Translations under genes and position numbers: made by a program | IMG/VR virus record: IMGVR_UViG_3300012663_000526 | Location: 1-64,000 of that record | Origin: a virus | Direction: 5' to 3' (one strand) | DNA length: 64,000 nucleotides | The notes under the pieces: model-generated | What the model was told of the DNA's origin: nothing | The model's input: only the letters and a program-made list of their open reading frames with translations | Database searches by the model: none | Part shown: piece by piece, positions 6,859 through 48,067 of the stretch | Numbering within the stretch: the first letter of the stretch is position 1 | Layout: every line of letters begins with the position of its first letter

Positions 6859-6976
6859 ATTTATTTGCATAATAGTATAATTATACATTAGTATTTATTT
6901 AAAATGTGGATAAATATGTGTATAACTTTTATAGTTGACAAACTTTTTTTAATCGACTATAATTAATATATAGCAA

Positions 6977-7054
6977 CGCAGAGTAGAGAAGCTCGGTTAT
7001 CTCGTCTGGCTCATAACCAGAAGGCCATGGGTTCGAATCCCATCTCTGCTACCA
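6977..7054 (+). tRNA. tRNA-Met(CAU), initiator-like
   Basis: Cloverleaf; anticodon loop CTCATAA; C1:U72 mismatch; GGTTCGAATCC; encoded CCA; upstream TTGACA...TATAAT promoter at about 6934-6963. Confidence 0.92.
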
Positions 7055-9101: not shown

Positions 9102-9983
9102 CTAGGGCGGTGTGTGAAATAAATAGCACTATTCCCTATGGTATATATATAACCATATACCCCGATATAAGGCCATTTGAGCCAATTCACGCATATGCAG
9201 CAAGGAGTAGGTTGCTCCTACTCCTAATATCACCTTGTAGAGCCATTTAAAGTGGTTTAAAGTGGTGTATAGTGGAGCAATATGGAGTAATAATACTAAA
9301 AGAATATCATATAATACTAATGATTTATACTATTAATTATATATGTGTATTCGATCATATTAACTAGGCTTCGTAATCATTTGCGGGATAATACCATATA
9401 AAAACATGGATGTCAATAGCATCGATATAACAATATGCTGGGAATTTCCGTGATATTTTGGGCGATTTCGTAATGTTTTTTTTGGATAATTTTGCCCAAT
9501 AATGCACGAAATATAATGAATAATTAATTAATTTGTCATATTCTGGGTATATTTCACCAGATAATTAATCATATTTATTTACTCCTATATATACCTATGC
9601 AAGGAGTGTTAGATGTCTATGTCACCGCCCGCCTGGAGGCGGCGGTGAGGGATCTATCCATTATAGCTATAGTATATATACCTTGTCAATATTTCAGTGA
9701 TATATATCACAATGTCGTAATGTCTATTAGAATAAATTCATATAAAATTTCAGGGAAAATTTGGATCACATCGTAATGTATATTAGTTTATGTTGACATT
9801 ATATCCACATAGATATCCACAGGGTGTGGATAAAGTTGTGGATAACTTATGTCCTATATGTCCGAATTGACAAGCATGATTTTATATGGTAGATTTCAGT
9901 GAAATTTGACAAGCCTTCGTAAATGTGATATAGATACCGATGCGGCATACCCTGGCTTTTGTCAAGCCAGAGCTGCCGTGTGT
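9102..9983. other. AT-rich non-coding convergence region with DnaA-box cluster
   Basis: No ORF of 60 aa or more; ATATCCACA at 9801 and 9813, TGTGGATAA at 9825 and 9837; GC hairpin 9622-9648; minus-strand TTGACA/TATAAT promoter 9660-9689. Confidence 0.7.
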
Positions 9984-11762: not shown

Positions 11763-11962
11763 TAGTATCCCTTTCCTTGGATGTCTTCATTTAGTATATC
11801 AGTTGCCACTGACAAAAGGTGTCGTGTGTTATAAATCTCAGCTTCCTTAACCCTATAGAAATGATGTTCGTTAACATAATCAATCTTCTCAAGGTCCTGC
11901 ATAAGGCTTACCTCATGTATCTTTATATACTCAACCATCTGATTAATTTTATTTCCCATCAA
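11762..11962 (-). CDS. Hypothetical protein
   Basis: 66 aa in a coupled operon. Confidence 0.6.
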   Translation of the reverse strand: MMGNKINQMVEYIKIHEVSLMQDLEKIDYVNEHHFYRVKEAEIYNTRHLLSVATDILNEDIQGKGY

Positions 11963-13332: not shown

Positions 13333-13994
13333 TAGTTCCAGTCAACATCCGTGTTTTCAACGGTCCAAGAATCAATTGAGACATTGCCATTGTTTGAATC
13401 AATGCACAACTCATCCTGTAGGAAATAATGTGCGTCAAAGTCATTGACCTCATCCAGTGGCAGTTCAACCTCGACATCAACTTGGATTGTTGCTGAGATA
13501 GTTACTGTCTTCGTAAGAGAGATGTCCAGGAATTCTGCAATCTCTGTTAACGCTTCCTGGTCATCTGAGTCAGCAAAGCGTTCCCCAATATAATCACGAA
13601 CGTTATTAATCTTATCTTGGAGCACGGCATTATGCTTTGAGGCCTGGCGTCCATTGTGTAGGTCCCATTCAAGGCTTGTTACCTTTTCTGTAACAATTTC
13701 AGGGTCCGAGTAACCGTGAATCTTCTTATACGTAACTAATTGGTTAGGGTTGTATTCTGAACCAAGGTCAATTGTTGCTTCTAGGTTTTCTAGCATTTGT
13801 TCTCTTTCTTTAGTAGGTGTATTAAGTGTAGCATGCTCGACTGACAATAATGTAGTCTTACGGCCACATGGACATGTTAGCTCTGTCACACCAGATGGGA
13901 ATCCAAATCCATCTGATGATGTTAGTTCAATTAAACAGTCACATTCATCTGGATCACAAATGAAGGTGTACTTGCTTGATACTAAATCTGTCAT
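13332..13994 (-). CDS. Hypothetical protein with N-terminal Zn-ribbon
   Basis: CDPDECDC...CPCG; acidic C-terminal domain. Confidence 0.7.
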   Translation of the reverse strand: MTDLVSSKYTFICDPDECDCLIELTSSDGFGFPSGVTELTCPCGRKTTLLSVEHATLNTPTKEREQMLENLEATIDLGSEYNPNQLVTYKKIHGYSDPEIVTEKVTSLEWDLHNGRQASKHNAVLQDKINNVRDYIGERFADSDDQEALTEIAEFLDISLTKTVTISATIQVDVEVELPLDEVNDFDAHYFLQDELCIDSNNGNVSIDSWTVENTDVDWN

Positions 13995-14942: not shown

Positions 14943-15115
14943 ATTGTTCCTTTCGGGTTGGAAATGGTTACATCTAATACTAGCATAGCCGTAATGGGTA
15001 GCGCAACTCTAGATTTCCACAAATTCTGGGATATCTGCGTAATGCCCGTAATGTGATCAAAATCATATGCCGCAGCGCCGAATATTTATGCAGAGCTTTG
15101 CATATTTATTTATTG

Positions 15116-15189
15116 CGATCTGTATCGGACTTGAACCGACGACCTCTACCGTGACAGGGTAGCGCTCTAACCAACTGAGCTAACAGACC
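15116..15189 (-). tRNA. tRNA-Asp(GUC)
   Basis: GGTCTGTTAGCTCAGTTGGTTAGAGCG-CTACC-CTGTCAC-GGTAG...GGTTCAAGTCC; G73; no encoded CCA. Confidence 0.92.
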
Positions 15190-15195
15190 AAATGG

Positions 15196-15223
15196 TGAGC
15201 AGTTTTAAATCTTGCTCAGGATT
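15196..15223 (-). ncRNA. H-type pseudoknot motif, copy 3
   Basis: AATC-C-TGAGCA-A-GATT-TAAAAC-TGCTCA. Confidence 0.65.
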
Positions 15224-15228
15224 TTTAT

Positions 15229-16242
15229 TTATGCGATTGCTAAAACTGTTTTCACAATTTTTGCTAAGCGATTTTTTTCTGCGTTGATTTGTGCATCGAA
15301 TCCACTTGCAGCAGCAAGTAGAGATTCTTGCTTACCACCACGAGCAGTGCGAGCCCAGTCAAGGCGTTCAGTTAGTGCATTTAGTGCGCCCCAACCAGTG
15401 CCAGCAATCATCCCGTTGAATTCACCAGTGTATAAATCGTTGATTGTATCCACTTTTGTTTCCCACTTTTTGATTGCGCCCTTTGTATCCTTCTCAGGCT
15501 TTGGATAAGCCGCAAGAATGATGTCGTTGAATTGCTTAGCATTGACTGACTTCTCATAGAGAGCGTTAGCCAACTTTGAGAATTCGTCCATATAAAAATC
15601 TGCCATTCCTAGTGCTTGACGAGCAATAGCAATTTTTCCTTCGGCGGTTTGCGTGTGGCGAATCTTGAATGATTGCTTTACGCCACCCTTTTTCTTAGCA
15701 CCTAATGCAAGATTAAGAGTGTTAGCACACACAACACGAACAGGTGTAATGCTTGCTTGAATTGCAATAGAACCATCGTGTGATGTGTTGATGAGCAAAT
15801 AAGTTTTTACAACATCATTGACACCAGTAGGGTCTAGAACAACTTCACGCTCTAGAGCAAGGGAGCCGAACACAACACGACCACCCTTGATTGAACCAGC
15901 AGTTTCCCAGCGACCTCCGCCATCTAGGATGTTATCACCAAATGCAAATAAATCTTCATTTTGCAATGGAACATAACGCTGACCCACTACACCAAGAACA
16001 TCGGTTTGTGAATTGTCGGTAGGATTAGTGCGTAGAACATACTGATAGTCTTTATCAGATGTTAGGTGATTTGGAACTTCCAAATCTTCTAAGCGGACAT
16101 TCCATCCATTTAGATTTGCAAGAGATAGCATTTCGGATGTATTTACTTCATCAGTAAATACGGTTCCTAAGCCGTGCCAAGCAGGTTCACGGAATGAGGC
16201 AAAAGATGTTTTGCCATTTTGACTTTCGAGGTCGTGCGCCAT
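15229..16242 (-). CDS. DUF932 family (phage/plasmid-like, TIGR03299-type) protein
   Basis: MAH...REPAWHGLG, Y.PLQN, ETAGS..GGR.VF, SHDGS, TPVRVVCANTL, RHT, TGWGALNA.TE. Confidence 0.9.
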   Translation of the reverse strand: MAHDLESQNGKTSFASFREPAWHGLGTVFTDEVNTSEMLSLANLNGWNVRLEDLEVPNHLTSDKDYQYVLRTNPTDNSQTDVLGVVGQRYVPLQNEDLFAFGDNILDGGGRWETAGSIKGGRVVFGSLALEREVVLDPTGVNDVVKTYLLINTSHDGSIAIQASITPVRVVCANTLNLALGAKKKGGVKQSFKIRHTQTAEGKIAIARQALGMADFYMDEFSKLANALYEKSVNAKQFNDIILAAYPKPEKDTKGAIKKWETKVDTINDLYTGEFNGMIAGTGWGALNALTERLDWARTARGGKQESLLAAASGFDAQINAEKNRLAKIVKTVLAIA

Positions 16243-16411
16243 ATTTTCCTTCTTTCTTTGTTGTTATTTCAAGTATAACAGGATGAACTGACAGATGTCA
16301 ATTCGTATAGGTAAAAATGTCCGATTTTCGATGTGATCAAATTCACACCCGTAAGCCTGTGGATAAGCCTGTGGATAACCGCCTCGCATTTCTGCGGGGC
16401 TTTGTCAAGTC

Positions 16412-16597
16412 CTATTTCATTTTAGTAATTAGTTCCCAGAAGGTGGGCGGGTCAAGATTTGTTTGCGCCTTTACATTATTATAAGTTTTATCATTTAGCA
16501 GTGCAGTAATAATAAAAAACGGCGCAATAAAAAAGAAGATAAGCAAGAGCACAAAACCACTACCAATTAGATAGCCAATAAACTCATACAAATCCAT
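16412..16597 (-). CDS. Small membrane protein
   Basis: Single long hydrophobic helix. Confidence 0.5.
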   Translation of the reverse strand: MDLYEFIGYLIGSGFVLLLIFFFIAPFFIITALLNDKTYNNVKAQTNLDPPTFWELITKMK

Positions 16598-16608
16598 AGT
16601 CTATTGTC

Positions 16609-17079
16609 TCACGCTTCTACTAGGCTTGGCAAATCGTATCTATCTTCAGTTATTTTTGCTTGGTCAATGTCTGACATTTTAGATTGCCATAATGATAGAT
16701 TGGATTCAAGACGGTCACCAAAAACTCTTACAAAATCTGCAAGGTCTACGGTCTCACCAGTCATACAAGATTTAAGTACATCGATACCTAGGTACACTCG
16801 ACTATCACCGCTCCACCCAATTGAAACAGGTACCAGGCACGTACGATACTCATCTTGAATCCAACCCACCCCCTCTCCACAAATCACAGCGTGTTTAGCA
16901 CATCCATATGCATCAGGTTCATTAATCATAACAAGCAATAGATCTTCTACAGAATGGTTCTTCATATATTCAACGGGGTCCATATCATAAGTTGCAACCT
17001 GGATATCCCGTGCACGTTCCAATAGCTTAGCTTGATCAAGCTTGTACCCAATAAAACCTCGTGTGCGTTCTCTTGACAT
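16609..17079 (-). CDS. Hypothetical protein
   Basis: AGGAG RBS; 156 aa. Confidence 0.7.
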   Translation of the reverse strand: MSRERTRGFIGYKLDQAKLLERARDIQVATYDMDPVEYMKNHSVEDLLLVMINEPDAYGCAKHAVICGEGVGWIQDEYRTCLVPVSIGWSGDSRVYLGIDVLKSCMTGETVDLADFVRVFGDRLESNLSLWQSKMSDIDQAKITEDRYDLPSLVEA

Positions 17080-17088
17080 ATATATCTC

Positions 17089-17838
17089 CTATTTCTTAGT
17101 AGCGCTAAATCGAATGTCGGCCTTACCATAAACGCATAGGCCACAAGATACGCAGGCGGACCCATTGCTAGAGATTAAAGGAATAGACTTATTATTCTCA
17201 GGGCACTTGGCCCCTACCTTACCAGTTAATTCTTTCATCTTATCAGCGGTTACGGCAAAAGTTTTTCCAAGGTATGCAAGGCGGACCTCATAATCCTTTT
17301 TTAACTCTTCTCCAATTGTAGCATTTTCGTCATCGGTTGAAAAGTATAGGGAAAGGTTACTAGTATTGTTTAGAATAAGTGCAGCACTCTTCACACGTGT
17401 GTATACCCAAAATTGAATTTCAGGATGATTAGTGATAACAGTCTTCCAGGCATGCGTGTAAGTATCATTAAAGAAATCGCCGTCCCAATGAATGCGGAAT
17501 AACTTAGGCGCCTCTTTTTTATCACAATCAGCAATAAATTCTACAATCATCTCATCTAATAGTCTAACCATAGTTTCGCTATCGGCGTCTTTTAGTAGGG
17601 CCCAGTTATGAAGAAGATTAGTCTTTACTCCCTTGAATAATTTTTCAAGCTTCCCAGCGTAGCAAACAGTCTCACAGATAGACGTTGCACCAGGACAAGA
17701 AAAGTCTTTTCCTGCAGGTAATCCGAACGTGTTGGCAATTGCTGCTTGCTTTCCATTTTTTGTGACAAGGTTAGCAACCTTTCTATCATTTGAGCGTTTT
17801 AGTTTCATAGGAATAATTGTATCGGTTGACACTGACAT
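17089..17838 (-). CDS. Gp88-like Fe-S/Cys protein (radical-SAM-related fold)
   Basis: FGLPAG..SCPGAT..C...CYA, FRIHWDGDF, FWVYTR, CPE...C..CGLC. Confidence 0.8.
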   Translation of the reverse strand: MSVSTDTIIPMKLKRSNDRKVANLVTKNGKQAAIANTFGLPAGKDFSCPGATSICETVCYAGKLEKLFKGVKTNLLHNWALLKDADSETMVRLLDEMIVEFIADCDKKEAPKLFRIHWDGDFFNDTYTHAWKTVITNHPEIQFWVYTRVKSAALILNNTSNLSLYFSTDDENATIGEELKKDYEVRLAYLGKTFAVTADKMKELTGKVGAKCPENNKSIPLISSNGSACVSCGLCVYGKADIRFSATKK

Positions 17839-17981
17839 TATAGGTCCCCCATTTCAGCGTCGGCCATACGTGTTTCCATATAGTCATCACGATACCAAAT
17901 TGGATCGGATGAAGAATAGCCTTTTATACAGATAGTGCAGATAGAGTAGTTGGTGCAGTAACAAGAATTAATATCGTTCAT
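17838..17981 (-). CDS. Small Cys-rich protein
   Basis: CYC....CTIC; GAAAGG RBS. Confidence 0.55.
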   Translation of the reverse strand: MNDINSCYCTNYSICTICIKGYSSSDPIWYRDDYMETRMADAEMGDL

Positions 17982-18125
17982 TAATTCGCCTTTCGTTCGG
18001 GTGTATAACAATTCTAGCAAACATTTCAGGGGATATCAATTCCTACTCGTAAGTAGGGTGTGATGTTGATCACATGCCGCCTCGCATTTTCAGCGATTTT
18101 GTCAAGTAGCTCGTATGTGGTGTGT

Positions 18126-18231
18126 TGAGCAGTTTATACACTTACTCAGGTGATAGAGAGGCAGGATCCTTAGTCTGGAACCCCTCTAATTATTTAATTG
18201 TGTTGAGCAGTTTTTACACTTGCTCAGGTGT
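18126..18231 (-). ncRNA. Two tandem pseudoknot motifs (copies 4 and 5) separated by a hairpin
   Basis: 18204-18231 ACAC/GTGT plus TGAGCA/TGCTCA; 18126-18152 CAC/GTG plus TGAGTA/TGCTCA. Confidence 0.65.
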
Positions 18232-18270
18232 TTCGCAATTTATCGTTATGCGAGAACGATTGCGCTTTTG

Positions 18271-18453
18271 TTATGCGCCAATTTTTACCATAGCCCACCG
18301 CATACCATTTTCGGTTTGCAAAGATAACTTAGTTAGGTTTGGTCGGACAGAAACAATTTCACGAATAGAACCTGTTATACCTGACTTACCTGTTGTGAAA
18401 GTATCTCCAATTCGGTAGAACTTTCCTTTTGTTGTATCCATTACTGGCGACAT
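18271..18453 (-). CDS. Small SH3/KOW-like protein, paralog of 19077-19223
   Basis: IGDTFTTGKSGITGSIREIV...RW. Confidence 0.7.
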   Translation of the reverse strand: MSPVMDTTKGKFYRIGDTFTTGKSGITGSIREIVSVRPNLTKLSLQTENGMRWAMVKIGA

Positions 18454-18483
18454 TTTATTCCTTCTTTCGGGTAGTTGTTGTGT

Positions 18484-18512
18484 TGAGCCTTTTCACAACT
18501 TGCTCAGGTTGT
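18484..18512 (-). ncRNA. H-type pseudoknot motif, copy 6
   Basis: ACAAC-C-TGAGC-AA-GTTGT-GAAAAG-GCTCA. Confidence 0.6.
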
Positions 18513-18562
18513 CCCACTCTAATTATTTATACACGCATTTCTGTGGGGCGTGTTGATTTTAT

Positions 18563-18985
18563 TTAGAGATAACGAGCAATAGCATTGTAAGTGCTTGTGC
18601 TAACCAATTCCTCATCTGTCATTTTCAGAATACGGATTGCGTTTGACATTTCCTCTTTCATCTCACGATACTGATGAGAGTGAATAACCTCAAAATCCTT
18701 TTCAGGTTCAGCAGGGAAGTTGCCTTCCTTTGTGATGATGTCAAAATCAACATTGAGAGTGTTGTTCCATTGACGATAGTTTGTGCGTAGGTTTTCAGCC
18801 TTTGAGAAGTTCTCAATAGCCCACTTAGCAATTTCCTTTTTCCAAGCCTCTTGCTTCTTACCGAACTTTGCTTCCTTTTCGGTTTGTGTAGCGTAGTCTT
18901 GCTCTAGTTCTGCTAACTTTACCTCTAGTGCCTTGATAACTCTAGCAGTAGGGATTTTTACATTTATAGATTTGCCTCTTGACAT
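18563..18985 (-). CDS. Hypothetical coiled-coil protein
   Basis: AAAGGA RBS; own promoter; 140 aa. Confidence 0.75.
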   Translation of the reverse strand: MSRGKSINVKIPTARVIKALEVKLAELEQDYATQTEKEAKFGKKQEAWKKEIAKWAIENFSKAENLRTNYRQWNNTLNVDFDIITKEGNFPAEPEKDFEVIHSHQYREMKEEMSNAIRILKMTDEELVSTSTYNAIARYL

Positions 18986-19076
18986 TTTTTTCCTTTGTTA
19001 GTTGGGTGGTTTGGGTTTCTTACTATCTAATTCTAGCAGGGGCTACTGACATTTTGCCAATAGCCCCCGATTAGGA

Positions 19077-19223
19077 TTACTTCGCTGTTGTCCAGCGAGT
19101 TTGACCTGCGACATCAAGTTTGATACGATAAGAGCCATTATCGTTCTTGACTACTTCTGTGATTGTTCCTTCTACGCCAGACTTTGCTGTTGTAAAAGTT
19201 TCACCGATTTTTGGTGTTGTCAT
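19077..19223 (-). CDS. Small SH3/KOW-like protein (48 aa; not in ORF track)
   Basis: MTTPKIGETFTTAKSGVEGTITEVVKNDNGSYRIKLDVAGQTRWTTAK; GAAAGGA RBS; own promoter. Confidence 0.7.
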   Translation of the reverse strand: MTTPKIGETFTTAKSGVEGTITEVVKNDNGSYRIKLDVAGQTRWTTAK

Positions 19224-19550
19224 TTTGCTTCCTTTCCGTTTGTTGTTATTACAAGTCTAGCAAATCCTACTGACATTATCAAATCGTAAATCGGTCAAAT
19301 CGGACATTTTTTCCACAAATTCTGTGATAAACCTCATAATGTCGTAACTTGACAAAGCTCAGAAAATCCGTGGCGCACTCGGGCGTGTTGCGCCAGCATT
19401 TTTATGCAGTGCGTTGCATATTTATTTATTCAGAATATTTATTTTTATATTTTTGTTTTCGTGAATAAACTTTTTTTGATTGCACATAAGTTGCAGCGTT
19501 TGATCTCCGCAATTCTTGAATGCGTGTAACTTTTTCTTTTAGCATTTTTT

Positions 19551-19823
19551 TTAATCCCATTCTGGTAGCCAAGCGGACAAGTGGTGTTGCTCTGCAATTG
19601 CCCAAGCGGGTGCAGTAGTTTTATTTTTATACAATACGCCTTCAGGCATTTCAATTTCAGTATCGCCATCGCCTGCGTGTATTGCGTCAATTGCTTCAAT
19701 GCAAGGTTGCACCATAGAAAGTGGAACGGGCGGGTAGTGATTACCCTGTAAGTGATAACCAATAGCCTGTTCAAGTGATAGGTCAAAGTTAGTTGCTAAG
19801 TCAATTGCTGTATTGTTTCCCAT
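19551..19823 (-). CDS. Hypothetical protein
   Basis: HLQGNHYPPVP...EQHHL; TAATG coupling. Confidence 0.7.
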   Translation of the reverse strand: MGNNTAIDLATNFDLSLEQAIGYHLQGNHYPPVPLSMVQPCIEAIDAIHAGDGDTEIEMPEGVLYKNKTTAPAWAIAEQHHLSAWLPEWD

Positions 19824-20038
19824 TATCGTGTTACCACTCTTCCATCTCGATAGAATATTTTTGTATAGCATTTACCTGTATTGGTATAAATATTAACTGT
19901 TGAGTATTCGTTAGCCATTCCCCAGTCTGTAAAACTGAAGAAAGACTTCCAAGCGTCAAATTCGCTTTCATAGCGTTGTTTCCAATGAGGGCTTTCCTCA
20001 TAGTCATACTGACAAGATACTAGGTATTCGTAGTCCAT
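19823..20038 (-). CDS. Hypothetical protein
   Basis: AAGGAG RBS; MDYEYLVSCQYD... Confidence 0.65.
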   Translation of the reverse strand: MDYEYLVSCQYDYEESPHWKQRYESEFDAWKSFFSFTDWGMANEYSTVNIYTNTGKCYTKIFYRDGRVVTR

Positions 20039-20040
20039 AG

Positions 20041-20181
20041 TTATGCTCCTTCGGGTGTTGTAAATAATTTTACCTCTTGGCACTGACAAGTTTCGACATC
20101 GTAGTCTAACTCGTTGCCCCAGAAAATAAGTCCTTCTCCGTGGCATTCATCGCAAGCAAATCGCATTACTGAGTTTATCAT
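20041..20181 (-). CDS. Small Zn-finger protein (46 aa; not in ORF track)
   Basis: CDECHGEG...CQC; AAGGTG RBS. Confidence 0.6.
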   Translation of the reverse strand: MINSVMRFACDECHGEGLIFWGNELDYDVETCQCQEVKLFTTPEGA

Positions 20182-20303
20182 TAAATAGCACCTTCCTGAA
20201 ATAATCCAATTTCAATGTCTAGTAATTCTTCGGGTGTTGCCTTAGATAAATCTACCCAAGACACGCCCTCTTCATTTATGCGAGCAAATTCAATGTATCC
20301 CAT
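20181..20303 (-). CDS. Hypothetical protein (40 aa; not in ORF track)
   Basis: MGYIEFARINEEGVSWVDL...; coupled stop/start. Confidence 0.55.
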   Translation of the reverse strand: MGYIEFARINEEGVSWVDLSKATPEELLDIEIGLFQEGAI

Positions 20304-20305
20304 TA

Positions 20306-20515
20306 TTACTCACCAACCTTCACCGCAATAGTTGCGTATTGTGTAGATAATTTACCTTTAGCATTTACGCCAATTAGGTAGGCTTCGGTATTTTCTCCAT
20401 ACCAAATACCTTCACGCTTTTCAGCGGAGATAATCTCACCCGAAAAAAATCGGTTGCGTGAGCGATAGTGTTTTCCTATAAGTAGGCTTTCGATTGTGTA
20501 TAGTTTAGTAGCCAT
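20306..20515 (-). CDS. Hypothetical protein
   Basis: GAAGG RBS; own promoter. Confidence 0.65.
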   Translation of the reverse strand: MATKLYTIESLLIGKHYRSRNRFFSGEIISAEKREGIWYGENTEAYLIGVNAKGKLSTQYATIAVKVGE

Positions 20516-20806
20516 TAGTGGCACCTTCTTTCATTTTGTTGTTGATACAAGTCTATCATTTACTACTGACATTTCAGGGAAGCCACGCCGTAAATCATAA
20601 ACTATTTTGTTTTTCTTACTATGTAAGTCTAGCAGAACGGACTGACATTTTCACATTACTAGCCAGTAAATCCAAATAATGAGACGCTCAAGCCGTGTGA
20701 TAAATCTCACAAAAATTTCCAGCTTATCCACAGACACACCGTAAGTTATCCCCAGACACGCCCGAGTGCGAGGCGCTGTCGGGCGTGTTGCATTTAGTTG
20801 AAAGTT

Positions 20807-20833
20807 TGAGCAGTTTTAGATCGTGCTCAGGAT
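20807..20833 (-). ncRNA. H-type pseudoknot motif, copy 7
   Basis: ATC-C-TGAGCA-C-GAT-CTAAAAC-TGCTCA, just after a stop codon. Confidence 0.65.
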
Positions 20834-20839
20834 TTTATT

Positions 20840-21010
20840 TTATTTGTTGCAAGCAATCCGAAACTTTTCAAAATCAAATCGTGGATTATCTGCAGAAAAG
20901 AAATCTGCAAACTCTTCAATTAAATCTTGAAACACAACTTCATTTGAAATTGAAGATTTGAAATCAGAAAGAATTTCAGCAGTAGAAACATAATCTTTAC
21001 GAGTCATCAT
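20840..21010 (-). CDS. MTRKDY-family small protein (56 aa; not in ORF track)
   Basis: MMTRKDYVSTAEIL...DNPRFDFEKFRIAC; paralog at 22733. Confidence 0.75.
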   Translation of the reverse strand: MMTRKDYVSTAEILSDFKSSISNEVVFQDLIEEFADFFSADNPRFDFEKFRIACNK

Positions 21011-21222
21011 TAGTTGTTACCCCATTTCAAAGTTGCATAAGAATTATTTTTATTTATTTCTTCCATTGCATTTAGAGAGTCAATAGAACCAATAAAACTT
21101 TCAGAAAAAAGTTTTTGAATAAAACTTTCAGGCATTGTTGCAAGAGCAGAAATTACATAGTCGGGAGCCTTGTGCTCGTCAATCTCTGCAATTAGATTTA
21201 CAGTGTGTGAAATTGTTATCAT
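21010..21222 (-). CDS. Hypothetical protein
   Basis: TAATG coupling at both ends. Confidence 0.6.
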   Translation of the reverse strand: MITISHTVNLIAEIDEHKAPDYVISALATMPESFIQKLFSESFIGSIDSLNAMEEINKNNSYATLKWGNN

Positions 21223-21407
21223 TACTTTACCGCCTTTCCCTTTAGAACACCACGAACACCGAGCAAATCGCAATCAAATTTGACCGAGATACCAACAGGG
21301 AGTTGGGCTGGATAAGTGTTGATGAATTGGGCAACCGCACCTTTAGAAGGAAGGTTGATTTTTGATACTGAACCTGAGAAGGTTTCTAGTCTGATAGTGT
21401 AAGTCAT
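21222..21407 (-). CDS. Hypothetical protein
   Basis: GAAAGGA RBS; own promoter. Confidence 0.7.
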   Translation of the reverse strand: MTYTIRLETFSGSVSKINLPSKGAVAQFINTYPAQLPVGISVKFDCDLLGVRGVLKGKAVK

Positions 21408-21504
21408 TTTTGACTTCCTTTCGTTTGTTTGTTTATAGGAATAAGTCTAGCATAGGGGTCTGACATTTTGAGGCATTTAGCCCCAAAAGTCGGTGTGAGA
21501 TACC

Positions 21505-21660
21505 TCACAGGCAGTTGATACAATTACAACCTTTAGAGGAGAACAGATACTTTAGCAATTCCTTGCGAGTATAAGCGTCCAAGCCATAAGAGGATTTTAC
21601 TCCGCCATTATGGTATTCGTGAACGATAGTAGAGAATAGAGTTTCATTTAGTGTAGTCAT
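21505..21660 (-). CDS. Small Cys-tail protein
   Basis: GAAAGGTGG RBS; ends CNCINCL. Confidence 0.65.
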   Translation of the reverse strand: MTTLNETLFSTIVHEYHNGGVKSSYGLDAYTRKELLKYLFSSKGCNCINCL

Positions 21661-22120
21661 TTGAGACCACCTTTCTTTTAAGTAGTTAAAAACCTTTTTT
21701 AACTTTCTATACCTAGAAGTATAGCAGGGGGGTCTGACATTTACTGGCCAGTAATCGGTCAAATCGGACATTTTGAAATGTGTTTAAAATCACATCAGCT
21801 TTTTACGCTCAAAATCTCAGTGTGTTCATAATCACACCTGTAAAGACACGCCCGAGTGCGCCTCGATTTTTTTGATCGTTGTCAAGTGCAACACGCAATT
21901 ATTTTTATTTATTTGTAATCAAAAAACATTTCTGCTAACAATTCTAATTCATCATTTGTTAAGTGATCAATTTGAATTGCATTTGCAAAATCTTCGCCAA
22001 CGCTTGTCATCTCTGTCATTATTACCAACACCTTTCACATAAAGCAGTTATAAATTCTGCATCTTCAATTGACATTTCCATTACGAATTCATCGCAACCT
22101 TTACAAAATAAATCTTTCAT

Positions 22121-22282
22121 TTATTCACACTCACATTCTTGCGTATAATCAAATTCGCAATAGTAGCAACCCATTTGTTCGCCGTGTGCTTTGCACACAT
22201 AAACAAATTGGCTTTCCTCACAACAGAAACGCATTTCATCTTTTATGAAATAGAATTCATTTTCATCAATGTAGTTTTTCAT
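22121..22282 (-). CDS. Small Cys-rich protein
   Basis: CC...C..H....CYYC...CEC. Confidence 0.6.
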   Translation of the reverse strand: MKNYIDENEFYFIKDEMRFCCEESQFVYVCKAHGEQMGCYYCEFDYTQECECE

Positions 22283-22458
22283 TATTTGGAAACCTTCCAA
22301 TCTCTCCACATTGGGAGTCTTTCAGGGTCGGTATCATCATACCAACGCTCAATGTTATTTTCGCAAACCTCACAAAATGTGAATTGCTCATCTCCTACCA
22401 TAGAGATAGCAGGTTTGAATGGAGTGTGCTCTTTGCACATTGTAATTGTTGAATTCAT
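22282..22458 (-). CDS. Small Zn-binding protein (58 aa; not in ORF track)
   Basis: MNSTITMCKEH...FTFCEVCENNIERW; GAAAGGA RBS. Confidence 0.65.
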   Translation of the reverse strand: MNSTITMCKEHTPFKPAISMVGDEQFTFCEVCENNIERWYDDTDPERLPMWRDWKVSK

Positions 22459-22732
22459 TTGAATTCCTTTCTAGTTTGAGAACCTTTCTCAACTTTCTTA
22501 TGACTTTAGTCTAACATAGACCACTGACATTTTGGGGGGTTACTGGCGAGTATTTTCAAAGTATTTTTGTGATTTGCACCACATAGACTTATCCACAGAC
22601 ACGCCCGACGCCGCCTCGAAATTTTTGCGATATGTCAAGTCGACACACCGCAAAAACTTTTTTATTTTAAATTAATAAAAGATAACCAAATAAAGTTACG
22701 AGGATGATCAGAAAAATAAATTCTTTCACGAA

Positions 22733-22891
22733 TTAATTTTCCAAGCAAGCTTCAAAAAACTTTTCTTCGTTAAACCTTTCATTATCTTTTTTAAACATAT
22801 TTGAAAAGTCTAACAACAATGCAGGCGGAACTTCTTCAAAGTGCTTGTTAAGAATTTCGGCGGTTGAGATGTAGTCTTTACGTGTCATCAT
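22733..22891 (-). CDS. MTRKDY-family small protein (52 aa; not in ORF track)
   Basis: MMTRKDYISTAEIL...DNERFNEEKFFEAC. Confidence 0.75.
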   Translation of the reverse strand: MMTRKDYISTAEILNKHFEEVPPALLLDFSNMFKKDNERFNEEKFFEACLEN

Positions 22892-23373
22892 TAGTTTAAT
22901 CCATTCTCTTTAAGGTCTTTGATTACGGCAATTACTAGGGGGATAGTAACGCCAAGCATTACTAATTGGACTAAGGTGGTTAGTAGGCGATTACTTGTCA
23001 TTAGTGTTTTTCCATTTCTTGTAGTATTTATATCCTACACCAAGTAGGACGGCGGTGGCAAGTAGTTGCCAAGATAGGGCGATATAGCACCATTCTGTAT
23101 CTAGCATAAATCCATAGTTATCTAATTCTATTGATAGCATTACTTAGTATCTACCTCTCTAATGTTATAGGTAAACCCTTTACCTAATTTGTTTAGTTCT
23201 GCAATTACTGCAAGAATTTCTTCAGGCTTGCTAGCCTTTTGATTAACGGCTAGTAGTTGAGAGCCTTGCCATAGTGTGTAAGTGATAGTCATTTACTGTT
23301 CTTCTTTCTGTTAGTTTTTATAGTATAAGTTTAATAGTAGGGATAGGGAAAAGTCAAGTTTTGATCGTGTGAG

Positions 23374-23586
23374 TTACGCCACACGATTAGCGAATACCCA
23401 CTTACTTTCGTTAGGGGTAAGGTAACGGTGAGAGATAAGACCCTCAGAGGCTACCATATATACATAAGCCATACGGCTAATGTAGTTACCGTCTTTAGTT
23501 CTAAAGATACGGTTATCCTTAGTGTTAGAGGAAGCCATAGAGTGGAAAGGCTCTACTACTACTGTTAGTGTATTTAGTGAATTCAT
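23374..23586 (-). CDS. Hypothetical protein
   Basis: GAAAGGA RBS; own promoter. Confidence 0.65.
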   Translation of the reverse strand: MNSLNTLTVVVEPFHSMASSNTKDNRIFRTKDGNYISRMAYVYMVASEGLISHRYLTPNESKWVFANRVA

Positions 23587-23761
23587 TTTAGAATTCCTTT
23601 CTTTTTTATTCGGTTAGTATTTCTAACCTTTTTGCTGACCTAGTTTATTTGCTCTTTCGGGAGGCTCACCTAGGATTTTCTTTTATTTAGTTTTTCTTAT
23701 GTAGTAAGACTATCAGACCAAACCCTGAAAGTCAAGGCTATTTGGTGTGATGTCTACCACA

Positions 23762-23920
23762 CTAGGGCTTAGTGTATCCCTTACCCTGTGGGCAGTGGAT
23801 GTCAAACTGACCTCCACACATTACACAGCGTGTCCACGCTGTGAGTCCCCCGCAAGTATCGCAAGCGGTAAGAGGGAAGGCAGAGCCTAGGCTATTTCTA
23901 TTTTCATACAGTGAATTCAT
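23762..23920 (-). CDS. Small double-CxxC Zn-finger protein
   Basis: CDTCGG...CVMCGG; GAAAGGA RBS. Confidence 0.6.
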   Translation of the reverse strand: MNSLYENRNSLGSAFPLTACDTCGGLTAWTRCVMCGGQFDIHCPQGKGYTKP

Positions 23921-24116
23921 TTGGAATTCCTTTCTTTCTTTGTTAATCACCTTGATTAACTTGATACTAGTATCCTATCAGACCCCACTGACATTTTCTA
24001 CTCAAAAAACGCCCAAATCGGACATTCTGAATGTGAGATACACCACATTAGGGCTATGGGCGCACTATTTGTCCGTTTTATCCTACTCCGAGTATGAATC
24101 ATACAAAATAAACTGA

Positions 24117-24430
24117 TATTAACATTTTAGAAAAGCTAATATTGTAGTTGACTAGAAATATGATACACTTAGATCATGAGAAAGTCGGCGGTAAGACGAA
24201 TACGCTAATCCCTTGGGGATATAGCTTAATCAGGTTAAAGCATTTGTCTTATATACAAACGACTCTGGGTTCAAATCCCAGTATCCCTACTATTGGAGTT
24301 TAATATGAATTGGATCCAAGCAACAATTATCTTTGGACCTATAGTGTTCTTGCTAATTGCATTCAGAAAAGACATTTTCTAAAAAATATTTTATTAACAT
24401 TTTATAGAAACTAATATTCTAGTTGACTAG
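24117..24430. repeat. 39-bp imperfect direct repeat flanking tRNA-Ile
   Basis: TATTAACATTTTA...CTAATATT(G/C)TAGTTGACTAG at 24117-24155 and 24392-24430. Confidence 0.75.
24215..24289 (+). tRNA. tRNA-Ile(UAU)
   Basis: GGGGATA/TATCCCT acceptor stem; TTTGT-CTTATAT-ACAAA anticodon arm; CTGGG-TTCAAAT-CCCAG T arm; A73. Confidence 0.85.
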
Positions 24431-47690: not shown

Positions 47691-48067
47691 TGTATTATGT
47701 TAAATTTGGACCAGATGGATTCCATGAAGAATCAAAATGGGCAGAGGAATTTCCTGGAGAAGGATGGTATGCTGCTGGAACCGATATTACTGGAAAGTAT
47801 TTTAAACTTTCAAGAGAAGTAGCAGTTGCATTAACAAAAAAGCAGTTTGAAGACCACATGTCGTACCTTGGAAATAAAGCTACTTTTGATGTAGCAAGAA
47901 GAAGAAGAAACGAAGCTTTATCTGAATCAGATTGGACTCAGTTACCAAACAGCCCTTTATCTGATGAAAAAAAGGCACAATGGGAAGCCTACAGAGAAGC
48001 ATTAAGAAACTATCCAGCATTACTGGAAAGTGACATTAATGCAGAATTCCCTGCAGAACCGCAATAA
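47690..48067 (+). CDS. Tail fibre assembly chaperone
   Basis: R.RRN..L.ESDWTQLP.SPL.....W..YR.ALR. Confidence 0.85.
   Translation: MYYVKFGPDGFHEESKWAEEFPGEGWYAAGTDITGKYFKLSREVAVALTKKQFEDHMSYLGNKATFDVARRRRNEALSESDWTQLPNSPLSDEKKAQWEAYREALRNYPALLESDINAEFPAEPQ

Follow-up and report, generated by a model that had tools for sequence, protein, structure and literature searches.

Predicted PafBC-type promoters with host-like upstream words in the small-gene block of a lake phage

The small-gene block and its recurrent words

The viral record IMGVR_UViG_3300012663_000526 (IMG/VR) is 107,950 bp long and carries direct terminal repeats; the window analysed here is its first 64 kb (64,000 nucleotides), with a GC content of approximately 39%. 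Between 10 and 26 kb lies a leftward block of small open reading frames (ORFs), broken by genes for tRNA-Asp and tRNA-Ile, and the subject of this report is the set of intergenic gaps in this block, mainly between 15000 and 24070, in which short sequence words recur. An original prediction, made from the letters alone, had described these gaps as enhancer-like cassettes built from a shuffled motif vocabulary. Here we describe them as putative composite promoter regions, with core promoters that match the actinobacterial PafBC type and upstream words in preferred slots, several of which resemble sites of host factors.

The ribonucleotide reductase and a 337-aa protein of the phage are 54-67% identical to their counterparts in BE-cluster phages of Streptomyces, a WhiB-like protein is encoded in the genome, and the stretch is present in lake and freshwater metagenomes from 15 studies; on these grounds we infer that the phage infects freshwater actinobacteria. 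No deposited phage gave a megablast match to the 9-kb stretch. Pfam detected no recognisable DNA-binding domain in 20 block ORFs, no WYL domain was found in the phage proteins, a sigma-region-4-like match was sub-threshold only, and an Rfam scan returned nothing beyond two tRNAs. For comparison within the family, 578 related viral loci were matched using a 249-aa protein as query and 80 of them, 1.23 Mb in total, were fetched; the cassette words followed include GGYGTGTCG, AATGTCCGATTTG and TTGAGCGTCTCAA.

Four of the motifs lie exactly where they had been reported and are essentially absent elsewhere in the 108-kb genome. RACACGCCCGA occurs in five copies, at 19379(-), 20755, 20779(-), 21845 and 22598, with none elsewhere in the 107,950 bp (0.02 in shuffles), and CTTGACA-N14-16-CGWGGCG also occurs five times (0.00 in shuffles). 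AATCGGACATT has four copies against 0.09 in shuffles, and a 22-mer containing it is present twice. The palindrome YTACT-N4-AGTAD is found at 18043, 20656, 21741 and 22540, with a non-palindromic match at 47787; its 8 strand-hits against 2.4 in shuffled sequence are a modest excess genome-wide, seven of the eight falling within these 9 kb. There are four perfect CRP palindromes, all in the region (8 strand-hits, 0.24 shuffled), and seven perfect DnaA boxes (TTATCCACA) in the phage genome against 1.35 shuffled. The pentamer CGTAA, which had been called frequent, is not enriched (139 in the genome, 227 +/- 16 in shuffles; 2.0 per kb here and 1.3 per kb genome-wide). The most frequent element of all had been overlooked: CTGACAT on the plus strand, which on the minus strand is TGTCAG-N10-TAnnnT.

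Core promoter, upstream slots and boundary unit

There are 15 genomic sites of the form TGTC[AG]G-N10-TAnnnT, where shuffled sequence has 2.0 +/- 1.4. Between 11.8 and 24 kb, 13 of them point the same way as the genes, 11 of these minus-strand promoters lying within 16.2-24.0 kb. On the coding (minus) strand the 3' end of a gap nearly always reads AAATGTCAG, 10 nt, TGnTAnnnT, a leader of about 30 nt, GAAAGG and ATG. The 80 family loci hold 702 distinct coding-strand TGTCRG-N10-TAnnnT sites (TGTCAG 623, TGTCGG 79), and among 918 distinct coding-strand matches to the looser GTC-N12-TAnnnT these two hexamers dominate, at 702/918. The spacer is exactly 10 nt in 304 of 306 family promoters, and the fifth position of the box is A in 89% of phage boxes, a preference shared by the candidate hosts. 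Upstream of the box the logo holds an A-rich triplet only and no conserved -35, and a few promoters in the window carry an additional TTGAYA.

The published PafBC consensus is tGTCgg(N10)tA(N3)T, its 5' part (the '-26 element') extending from -23 to -28, with no -35 and with a GTC that is invariant across actinobacteria (PMC8635444). Actinobacteria transcribe recA and further DNA-damage genes from this class of promoter. PafBC lodges between sigma-A region 4 and DNA, a 'sigma adaptation' that the same paper likens to T4 MotA/AsiA (PMC8635444); it joins RNA polymerase (RNAP) solely on such promoters and solely when bound to single-stranded DNA (ssDNA), and without RNAP it does not bind DNA (PMC11804915). 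With a GTC element at -28 to -23, a 10-nt gap to TAnnnT and no conserved -35, the phage promoters match the PafBC type (RecA-NDp, recA-like) in sequence and spacing, and PafBC dependence itself is predicted from this match. The recA promoter of the candidate hosts, whose genomes contain pafB and pafC, has the same form. The phage promoters differ from the described ones (PMC8635444, PMC11804915) in that 13 occur in 12 kb before small ORFs, in being preceded by AAA rather than T, and in being joined to phased CRP-type sites and other words. We found no description of phage promoters of the PafBC type in the published literature; for the other words, the proposed identification with host operators is new. 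The Streptomyces BE-cluster phage Jay2Jay is without PafBC-type promoters (2 against 5 in the control) and the feature is therefore not general to the BE-cluster lineage.

Upstream of the core each word has preferred distances from the -10 and different promoters fill different slots (site centres are given, the first base of the -10 being -12); the same arrangement is found in related lake viruses, in at least 80 fetched loci. A small set of words is thus reused in a composition that differs by promoter, as originally proposed, but the words are not freely shuffled, and 'enhancer-like' overstated the case since the sites are promoter-proximal (-36 to about -170) and bound to slots.

Class I CRP promoters of the E. 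coli lac type and the actinobacterial Crp/GlxR sites share the consensus TGTGA-N6-TCACA. The phage palindrome is likewise 16 bp long with an A/T-rich middle, consensus TGTGA(t)n(t)(a)n(a)TCACA. For the phasing analysis 1,067 promoters were clustered by downstream sequence into 343 groups, 188 of which carry a CRP-type site at -64.5, -74.5 or -84.5, with a minor peak at -69.5. The period is 10-10.5 bp (Rayleigh p ~1e-42), which places the sites whole helical turns upstream as in class I promoters; the centres are about 3 bp off the E. coli positions, and the partner is a PafBC-type promoter instead of a -35/-10 pair.

The YTACT-N4-AGTAD motif, here PAL (TTACTGGCNAGTAA), is a 14-bp palindrome that abuts the box with its centre at -36 to -45, a position which suggests repression on the phage. 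Four window promoters have the word M (coding strand AATGTCCGATT), in one or the other orientation, and in each of them its centre falls at -56.0. E, TTGAGCGTCTCA(A), is a palindrome at -66.5 in a family-wide 'CRP-E-PAL' arrangement; it was compared with the HAIR/HspR site, which its right half fails to match. No 8-mer family is commoner upstream of the promoters than W1 (GGYGTGTCG, which includes RACACGCCCGA), and TCGGGCGTGT is present in 76 of the 80 loci. The core of the WhiA site is GACAC, which W1 holds on its opposite strand, making WhiA a possible reader; in W1, however, this core lies within a conserved word of 9-12 nt that marks recA promoters of the candidate hosts and not known division genes. 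A second PafBC site was rejected as an identity for W1, since PafBC binds no DNA without RNAP and W1 has no TAnnnT at N10. The WhiB-like protein of the phage (114 aa with a basic C-terminal tail; genome 104942-105115, near the right end and outside the window) could be a partner of sigma-A or WhiA on some promoters.

DnaA boxes lie at about -92 to -131. They also occur outside the cassettes. The AT-rich gap at 9690-9970, between the rightward and leftward gene blocks, contains a repeated TCGTAATGT, a CRP-like palindrome (9696-9711) and, in 12-bp steps, four DnaA boxes (9801, 9813, 9825, 9837) that make up two inverted pairs, and looks in sequence like a DnaA-dependent replication origin. Boxes at 6905 and 6917 are directly upstream of a TTGACA-N17-TATAAT promoter for tRNA-Met (6905-7054), so that the phage also has ordinary -35/-10 promoters, with DnaA boxes alongside those too.

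At the upstream edge of the cassettes RACACGCCCGA and CTTGACA-N14-16-CGWGGCG form one repeat of 42-44 nt, ACTTGACA-N14-16-CGWGGCG-N3-TCGGGCGTGT, in five copies of 76-86% identity, the one at 19347-19388 inverted. Its CTTGACA had been taken for a -35 without a -10; a promoter was rejected because there is no -10 at any sensible spacing, and an intrinsic terminator is doubtful, the consensus scan being unconvincing and the folds uneven. In the wider family a cassette starts with CGGCGTGTCGGCTTGACA, a GC hairpin (GCCCGCA-N4-TGCGGGG, with co-varying variants) and then TCGGGCGTGTCGTTA, the hairpin sitting immediately 5' of TCGGGCGTGTCG; in this phage, as in its three closest relatives, the 3' arm of this hairpin has decayed to CGWGGCG. 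Significant folds were obtained for three of the six units, at 16380-16399 (-15.5 kcal/mol, z -3.4), 20755-20789 (-23 kcal/mol, z -3.9) and 22621-22660 (-30.9 kcal/mol, z -5.5), and not for the other three. The unit lies 3' of the stop of the preceding gene, with no U tract in the direction of transcription. It is probably a terminator, an insulator or an RNA-end hairpin, and it is the weakest part of our account.

Two other hairpins were noted in the block. TGAGCAG..TGCTCAGG, which is outside the cassette vocabulary, is found 3' of block genes in five copies that are 65-94% alike (15196-15232, 18121-18152, 18199-18240, 18479-18520 and 20807-20843). A 33-nt AT-rich hairpin, ATGCAG(A/T)GC(T/G)TTGCATATTTATTTATT, has two copies, 91% alike, beside tRNA-Asp (15082-15114) and at the edge of cassette 19224-19440 (19398-19430); in related phages it precedes the GC hairpin.

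Individual cassettes, their conservation and transcripts

The cassettes are given from right to left and are on the minus strand unless stated. The promoter before the 23762-23920 ORF occupies 23972-23993 (TGTCAG 23988-23993, -10 TAGGAT 23972-23977), with M (AATGTCCGATT) at 24016-24026 (-56) and a CRP-like palindrome at 24032-24047 (-74.5). The tRNA-Ile gene (anticodon TAT; 24148-24290, plus strand), which stands within the leftward block, has an apparent rightward promoter-like site of its own, TTGACT-18-GATCAT, diverging from this promoter. The next cassette is made up of the promoter TGTCAGTGGTCTATGTTAGACT (22508-22529), PAL at 22540-22553 (centre -45.5), a CRP-like palindrome at 22568-22583 (-74.5), a reversed DnaA box (TTATCCACA, 22589-22597) and a boundary unit at 22598-22660, in which W1 (22598-22608), CGAGGCG (22612-22618), CTTGACA (22633-22639) and the W1 variant GGTGTGTCG (22641-22649) can be distinguished and which contains the 18-bp hairpin 22621-22660.

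The promoter TGTCAGACCCCCCTGCTATACT (21718-21739) is preceded by PAL as TTACTGGCCAGTAA (21741-21754, -36.5), the 22-mer with M (21753-21774, M at -56), two CRP-like palindromes (21779-21794 at -75.5 and 21821-21836 at -117.5) and a boundary unit at 21844-21887 (W1 21845-21855, CGAGGCG 21859-21865, CTTGACA 21880-21886) without a significant fold. At 21444-21465 a promoter is accompanied by a perfect CRP palindrome (21494-21509, -64.5). The gap that follows has two promoters, TGTCAGTCCGTTCTGCTAGACT at 20626-20647 and a second one 76 bp downstream (20550-20571); upstream of these, in 'C-E-P' order, are a perfect CRP palindrome (20696-20711, -84.5), E as TTGAGCGTCTCA (20680-20691, -66.5) and PAL (20656-20669, -43.5), and beyond them two DnaA boxes (20724-20732, 20746-20754) and a pair of W1 words (20755-20765, 20779-20789) that form a hairpin around CGAGGCG.

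A promoter inside the small-ORF run is located at 20067-20088. The promoter at 19254-19282 includes a -35-like TTGATA (19277-19282), and upstream of it the second copy of the 22-mer begins at 19289, with M at 19298-19308 (-56), a weak DnaA box (19309-19317) and a CRP-like site (19323-19338, -83.5). The inverted boundary unit (19347-19394, plus strand) consists of CTTGACA (19348-19354), CGTGGCG (19369-19375) and W1 (19379-19389), is 86% complementary to 21846-21887, and ends in a 7-bp GC stem (19371-19394) followed by TTTTT on the plus strand. Another promoter (19030-19051) is situated within a hairpin, GGGGCTA..TAGCCCC, 3' of the 19077-19223 ORF.

The cassette at 18011-18106, before the 60-aa gene, is without a GTC box and has instead a TTGATA-17-TAGAAT promoter (18011-18039), a PAL-like site (18043-18056), a perfect CRP palindrome (18059-18074, about -62.5), CGAGGCG (18078-18084) and CTTGACA (18100-18106). 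In most relatives this gap contains a PafBC box and W1; the CRP site has been retained here. A promoter at 17816-17837 marks the junction of the 60-aa and 249-aa genes. Before the 337-aa gene (16272-16301) the PafBC-type box (16288-16293) stands together with a TTGACA -35 (16296-16301) and the -10 TATACT, and the upstream part (16316-16409) holds M reversed (16316-16326, -56), a perfect CRP palindrome (16332-16347, -74.5), two DnaA boxes (16358-16378), the hairpin with CGAGGCG and CTTGACA (16403-16409). Two promoters lie outside the range first described, at 13825-13846, with a CRP-like site at 13875-13890 (-64.5), and at 11793-11814.

Among alignable relatives most of the words are better conserved than other intergenic sequence: identity is 98.8% for the -26 box, 98.9% for M, 99.4% for DnaA boxes, 98.2% for E, 95.9% for PAL and 90.1% for CRP sites (N6 included), against 81.6% for other intergenic bases. 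W1, which is loosely defined, reaches 78% and does no better than those. In orthologous cassettes words turn over while the CRP slot is kept. Repetition within the phage is also evident: there are seven copies of the promoter-leader stretch, and both occurrences of the 22-mer are identical. The original prediction had named remnants of block duplication as the finding that would refute it; recent duplication does account for the 22-mer, the 42-44-nt unit and the promoter-leader repeats, but not for the whole vocabulary, since motif bases (90-99%) are better kept than other intergenic bases (82%).

Contigs of four lake metatranscriptomes cover block genes, and RNA contigs were interpreted in the covered parts of the region. 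Their ends fall at 16249 (two runs), 19226-19232 (three runs) and 23937-23949 (three runs), in agreement between two or three studies. Each lies 15-28 nt downstream of a start that the -10 predicts (16265, 19247 and 23965), a weak hint that transcripts begin at these starts rather than running in from upstream. Further minus-strand starts are predicted near 20619, 21437, 21711 and 22501. The deepest contigs in all four metatranscriptomes cover a 140-aa ORF (18563-18985) and the 337-aa phrog_1221 gene (15229-16242), depth being a poor measure of expression.

Candidate hosts and the proposed regulation

Phage contigs have been mis-binned into metagenome-assembled genomes (MAGs) of many phyla, so binning carries no host signal, and the WhiB-like protein as a query retrieved distant Streptomyces matches only. 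Two actinobacterial MAGs were used solely as entry points; through one mis-binned phage contig they led to G001, a 1.3-Mb actinobacterial MAG, and the host set comprised G001 and 30 genomes of its order (1.2-2.2 Mb, nearly all 1.2-1.5 Mb, mostly single contigs). We infer acI-type freshwater actinobacteria as candidate hosts, which fits genomes of 1.2-1.5 Mb and the habitat.

Upstream of recA these genomes have GCGACAC(A/G)CC, then after 5-9 nt TGTCAGTGG-N7-TAnnnT, and the SOS box TCGAACAGATGTTCG; an alternative arrangement at other host recA loci has a forward GGCGTGTCG before the SOS box. GCGACAC(A/G)CC or GGCGTGTCG has the look of a recA cis element not described before in these bacteria. 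The strict pattern TGTCRGT-N6-TGnTAnnnT has 46 matches in the 31 host genomes against 6 in a reversed control, and with an 11-nt spacer it has none. Host sites of this type were found not only at recA but also before carD, before an OGG-like DNA glycosylase accompanied by a C5 methylase, and before a VWA protein. In 13/13 genomes searched pafB lies next to pafC, the two genes encoding proteins of 327 aa (WYL+WCX) and 303 aa (HTH_PafC+WYL+WCX), and each host genome has one gene for a cyclic-nucleotide-binding protein of CRP size (230-250 aa).

The original prediction had named a search for the motifs in candidate host promoters as a check; DnaA boxes, PAL and M do occur in the candidate host genomes. 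PAL is enriched 3-4-fold over control and occurs as a conserved intergenic site directly before etfB, thiolase, acpP and acyl-CoA carboxylase beta genes, on account of which it is likely the operator of a lipid-metabolism regulator, as predicted from these contexts. For M, ATGTCCGATTTG with at most one mismatch is enriched about 5-fold (roughly 208 against 40), as is the core AATGTCCGATTTG; conserved host sites, ATGTCCG(A/T)TTTG, are found before an extracytoplasmic function (ECF)-type sigma gene, between a MerR+B12-binding (LitR/CarH-like) gene and whiB, and near glycosyltransferase genes. A CarH/LitR operator, hinted at by the MerR+B12 gene beside one site, was considered as the identity of M and is doubtful: the word misfits the direct-repeat consensus, and the other sites are by ECF sigma and glycosyltransferase genes. 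In three complete genomes of candidate hosts, perfect DnaA boxes identical to the phage 9-mer cluster at the start/end of the chromosome (oriC). As abundant host words, W1, E and the W1-TTGACA composite were also tried, and showed no enrichment.

Taken together, we consider it rather probable that the blocks are PafBC-type core promoters gated by combinations of host factors in fixed upstream slots, the binding of which is predicted. The account draws on sequences, spacing, phasing, conservation in the family and the occurrence of words in the candidate hosts; protein binding, the sign of each effect, its timing and the identity of the host are deduced from these. The idea that the gaps sense several host regulators in combination thus holds in outline, the regions being composite and several words resembling sites of host factors, although the promoter itself had been misread. 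The blocks would be the regulatory heads of transcription units in the leftward small-gene block. Their core, TGTC(A/G)G at -28 to -23 and an extended -10 (TGnTAnnnT) 10 nt further on, with no conserved -35, would be read by the host PafB-PafC heterodimer, switched on by ssDNA and lodged between sigma-A region 4 and the DNA; lacking a WYL protein itself, the phage most likely needs PafBC of the host. Upstream, PAL at -36 to -45 would be a likely repressor operator, followed by slots for M (-56), E (-66.5) and the CRP/GlxR-type palindrome (-64.5/-74.5/-84.5, with class-I-like phasing), with DnaA boxes and GGYGTGTCG further out, and the 42-nt unit at the far edge probably ends or insulates the preceding unit. 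Because different slots are filled at each promoter, the host states that a unit answers to (ssDNA or DNA damage, cyclic AMP, lipid and replication status) would be combined differently from unit to unit.

Several points weigh against this account. Perfect CRP palindromes are nearly absent from the candidate hosts (0-1 per genome), so that use of the phage site by host CRP is not supported by the host genomes, and the host M regulon is heterogeneous. W1 is not enriched genome-wide in the hosts, yet it stands at recA promoters in both orientations; neither E nor the W1-TTGACA composite is a word of the candidate host genomes. Phage boxes are preceded by AAA (55-73%) and the host recA boxes shown by T or C, a difference that possibly points to another reader of the box. 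A normal -35 is also present at 16296 and 19277, and the 18011-18106 cassette has no GTC box. Dependence on ssDNA-activated PafBC would be odd for the very first genes of an infection. The predictions come from sequence, the host assignment is indirect, and clustered promoters are not fully independent samples.

It is conceivable, though we judge it unlikely, that the TGTCAG box, E, W1 and W1-TTGACA are bound by proteins of the phage itself, by appropriation of the MotA/AsiA kind or in the manner of stoperators, and that the likeness to PafBC promoters is convergence or partial mimicry. E and the W1-TTGACA composite, which are not host words, and the family-specific AAA extension would fit such readers, as would the comparison with T4 MotA/AsiA drawn in the PafBC paper (PMC8635444). 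In T4 middle promoters (MotA box at -30 plus AsiA) the -35 is similarly replaced by a box read through an adaptor between sigma region 4 and DNA; that adaptor is phage-encoded, whereas in the present phage no candidate for it was found and the box is the same as that of the host. The lack of a WYL domain, the sub-threshold sigma-region-4-like match and the score of 0/20 block ORFs with a recognisable DNA-binding domain speak against phage readers, as does the identity of box, spacing and TGn extension with the recA promoters of the candidate hosts; moreover, if the block genes are the first to be expressed, no phage protein would yet be present. An improbable alternative is that the block acts mainly as a decoy which, as the phage DNA replicates, soaks up PafBC-RNAP, CRP, DnaA and others and so disarms the damage response and replication control, transcription being secondary. 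The numbers would suit a sponge, with 9 strict-pattern promoters in the 12-kb block against 0-5 per 1.2-2.2-Mb host genome, and, in the 1.23 Mb of family loci, 332 perfect DnaA boxes (4-10 per 1.4-Mb host genome) and 400 perfect CRP palindromes (0-1 per host genome). A sponge, however, could do without strict co-orientation, a constant 10-nt spacer, CRP sites in helical phase and set slots, which weakens the pure sponge reading put forward originally, and the block genes are transcribed in lakes; sponge and regulatory roles are not exclusive and both can hold together.

Just as improbable, in our view, is that the gaps are recombination cassettes or duplication remnants whose words persist through block copying, the extra words being devoid of regulatory meaning. 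The PeSL cassettes of T4-like phages (PMC2839356, PMC4122927) are small terminator/promoter composites between variable small genes with breakpoints alongside, which the units here may resemble; they differ in their promoter class, in being shorter than the units here (up to ~170 bp), and in lacking the several protein-site words in slots; only some of the phage units fold well. The 42-44-nt unit with its 76-86% identity and one inversion, the 7-copy promoter-leader repeat and the identical 22-mer favour block copying. Replacements against loci L006 and L007 break at 22439/22484, just behind a promoter, such cases being few, and one RNA-library contig joins 19240 to 21448, each beside a promoter; in this respect the cassettes may also behave like PeSL units. 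Copying alone would not explain why spacers diverge while words stay, why word distances are fixed over hundreds of promoters with unrelated downstream genes, why several words are conserved in host genomes that otherwise share no sequence with the phage, or why orthologous cassettes swap words and keep the CRP slot.

Host-factor gating of PafBC-type promoters may be taken further. Tentatively, and with more doubt than for the gating itself, an abundant family of virulent lake phages could compute a multi-input decision at each promoter with host proteins alone. PafBC would be the switch that is always required, CRP would assist as a phased co-activator and a lipid-regulon regulator would repress, together with DnaA and at least two further factors (the readers of AATGTCCGATT and GGYGTGTCG), in an enhanceosome-like integrator assembled from copied host operators.

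Phages usually rely on strong host-type promoters and subsequently on factors of their own making. If the proposed gating is true, a whole phage family would instead wire a gene block to the ssDNA alarm of the host and to several of its metabolic regulators together, and sigma adaptation could be tested directly away from the host chromosome. The family also supplies a natural series of promoter variants with which PafBC, CRP and neighbouring repressors could be dissected, and opens a view into the otherwise unstudied regulons of uncultured freshwater actinobacteria, namely recA/carD/OGG for PafBC and etfB/fadA/acpP/accD for the palindrome. The proposed gating would also suggest that light or ultraviolet damage and the nutrient state of the host matter for infection by very abundant lake phages.

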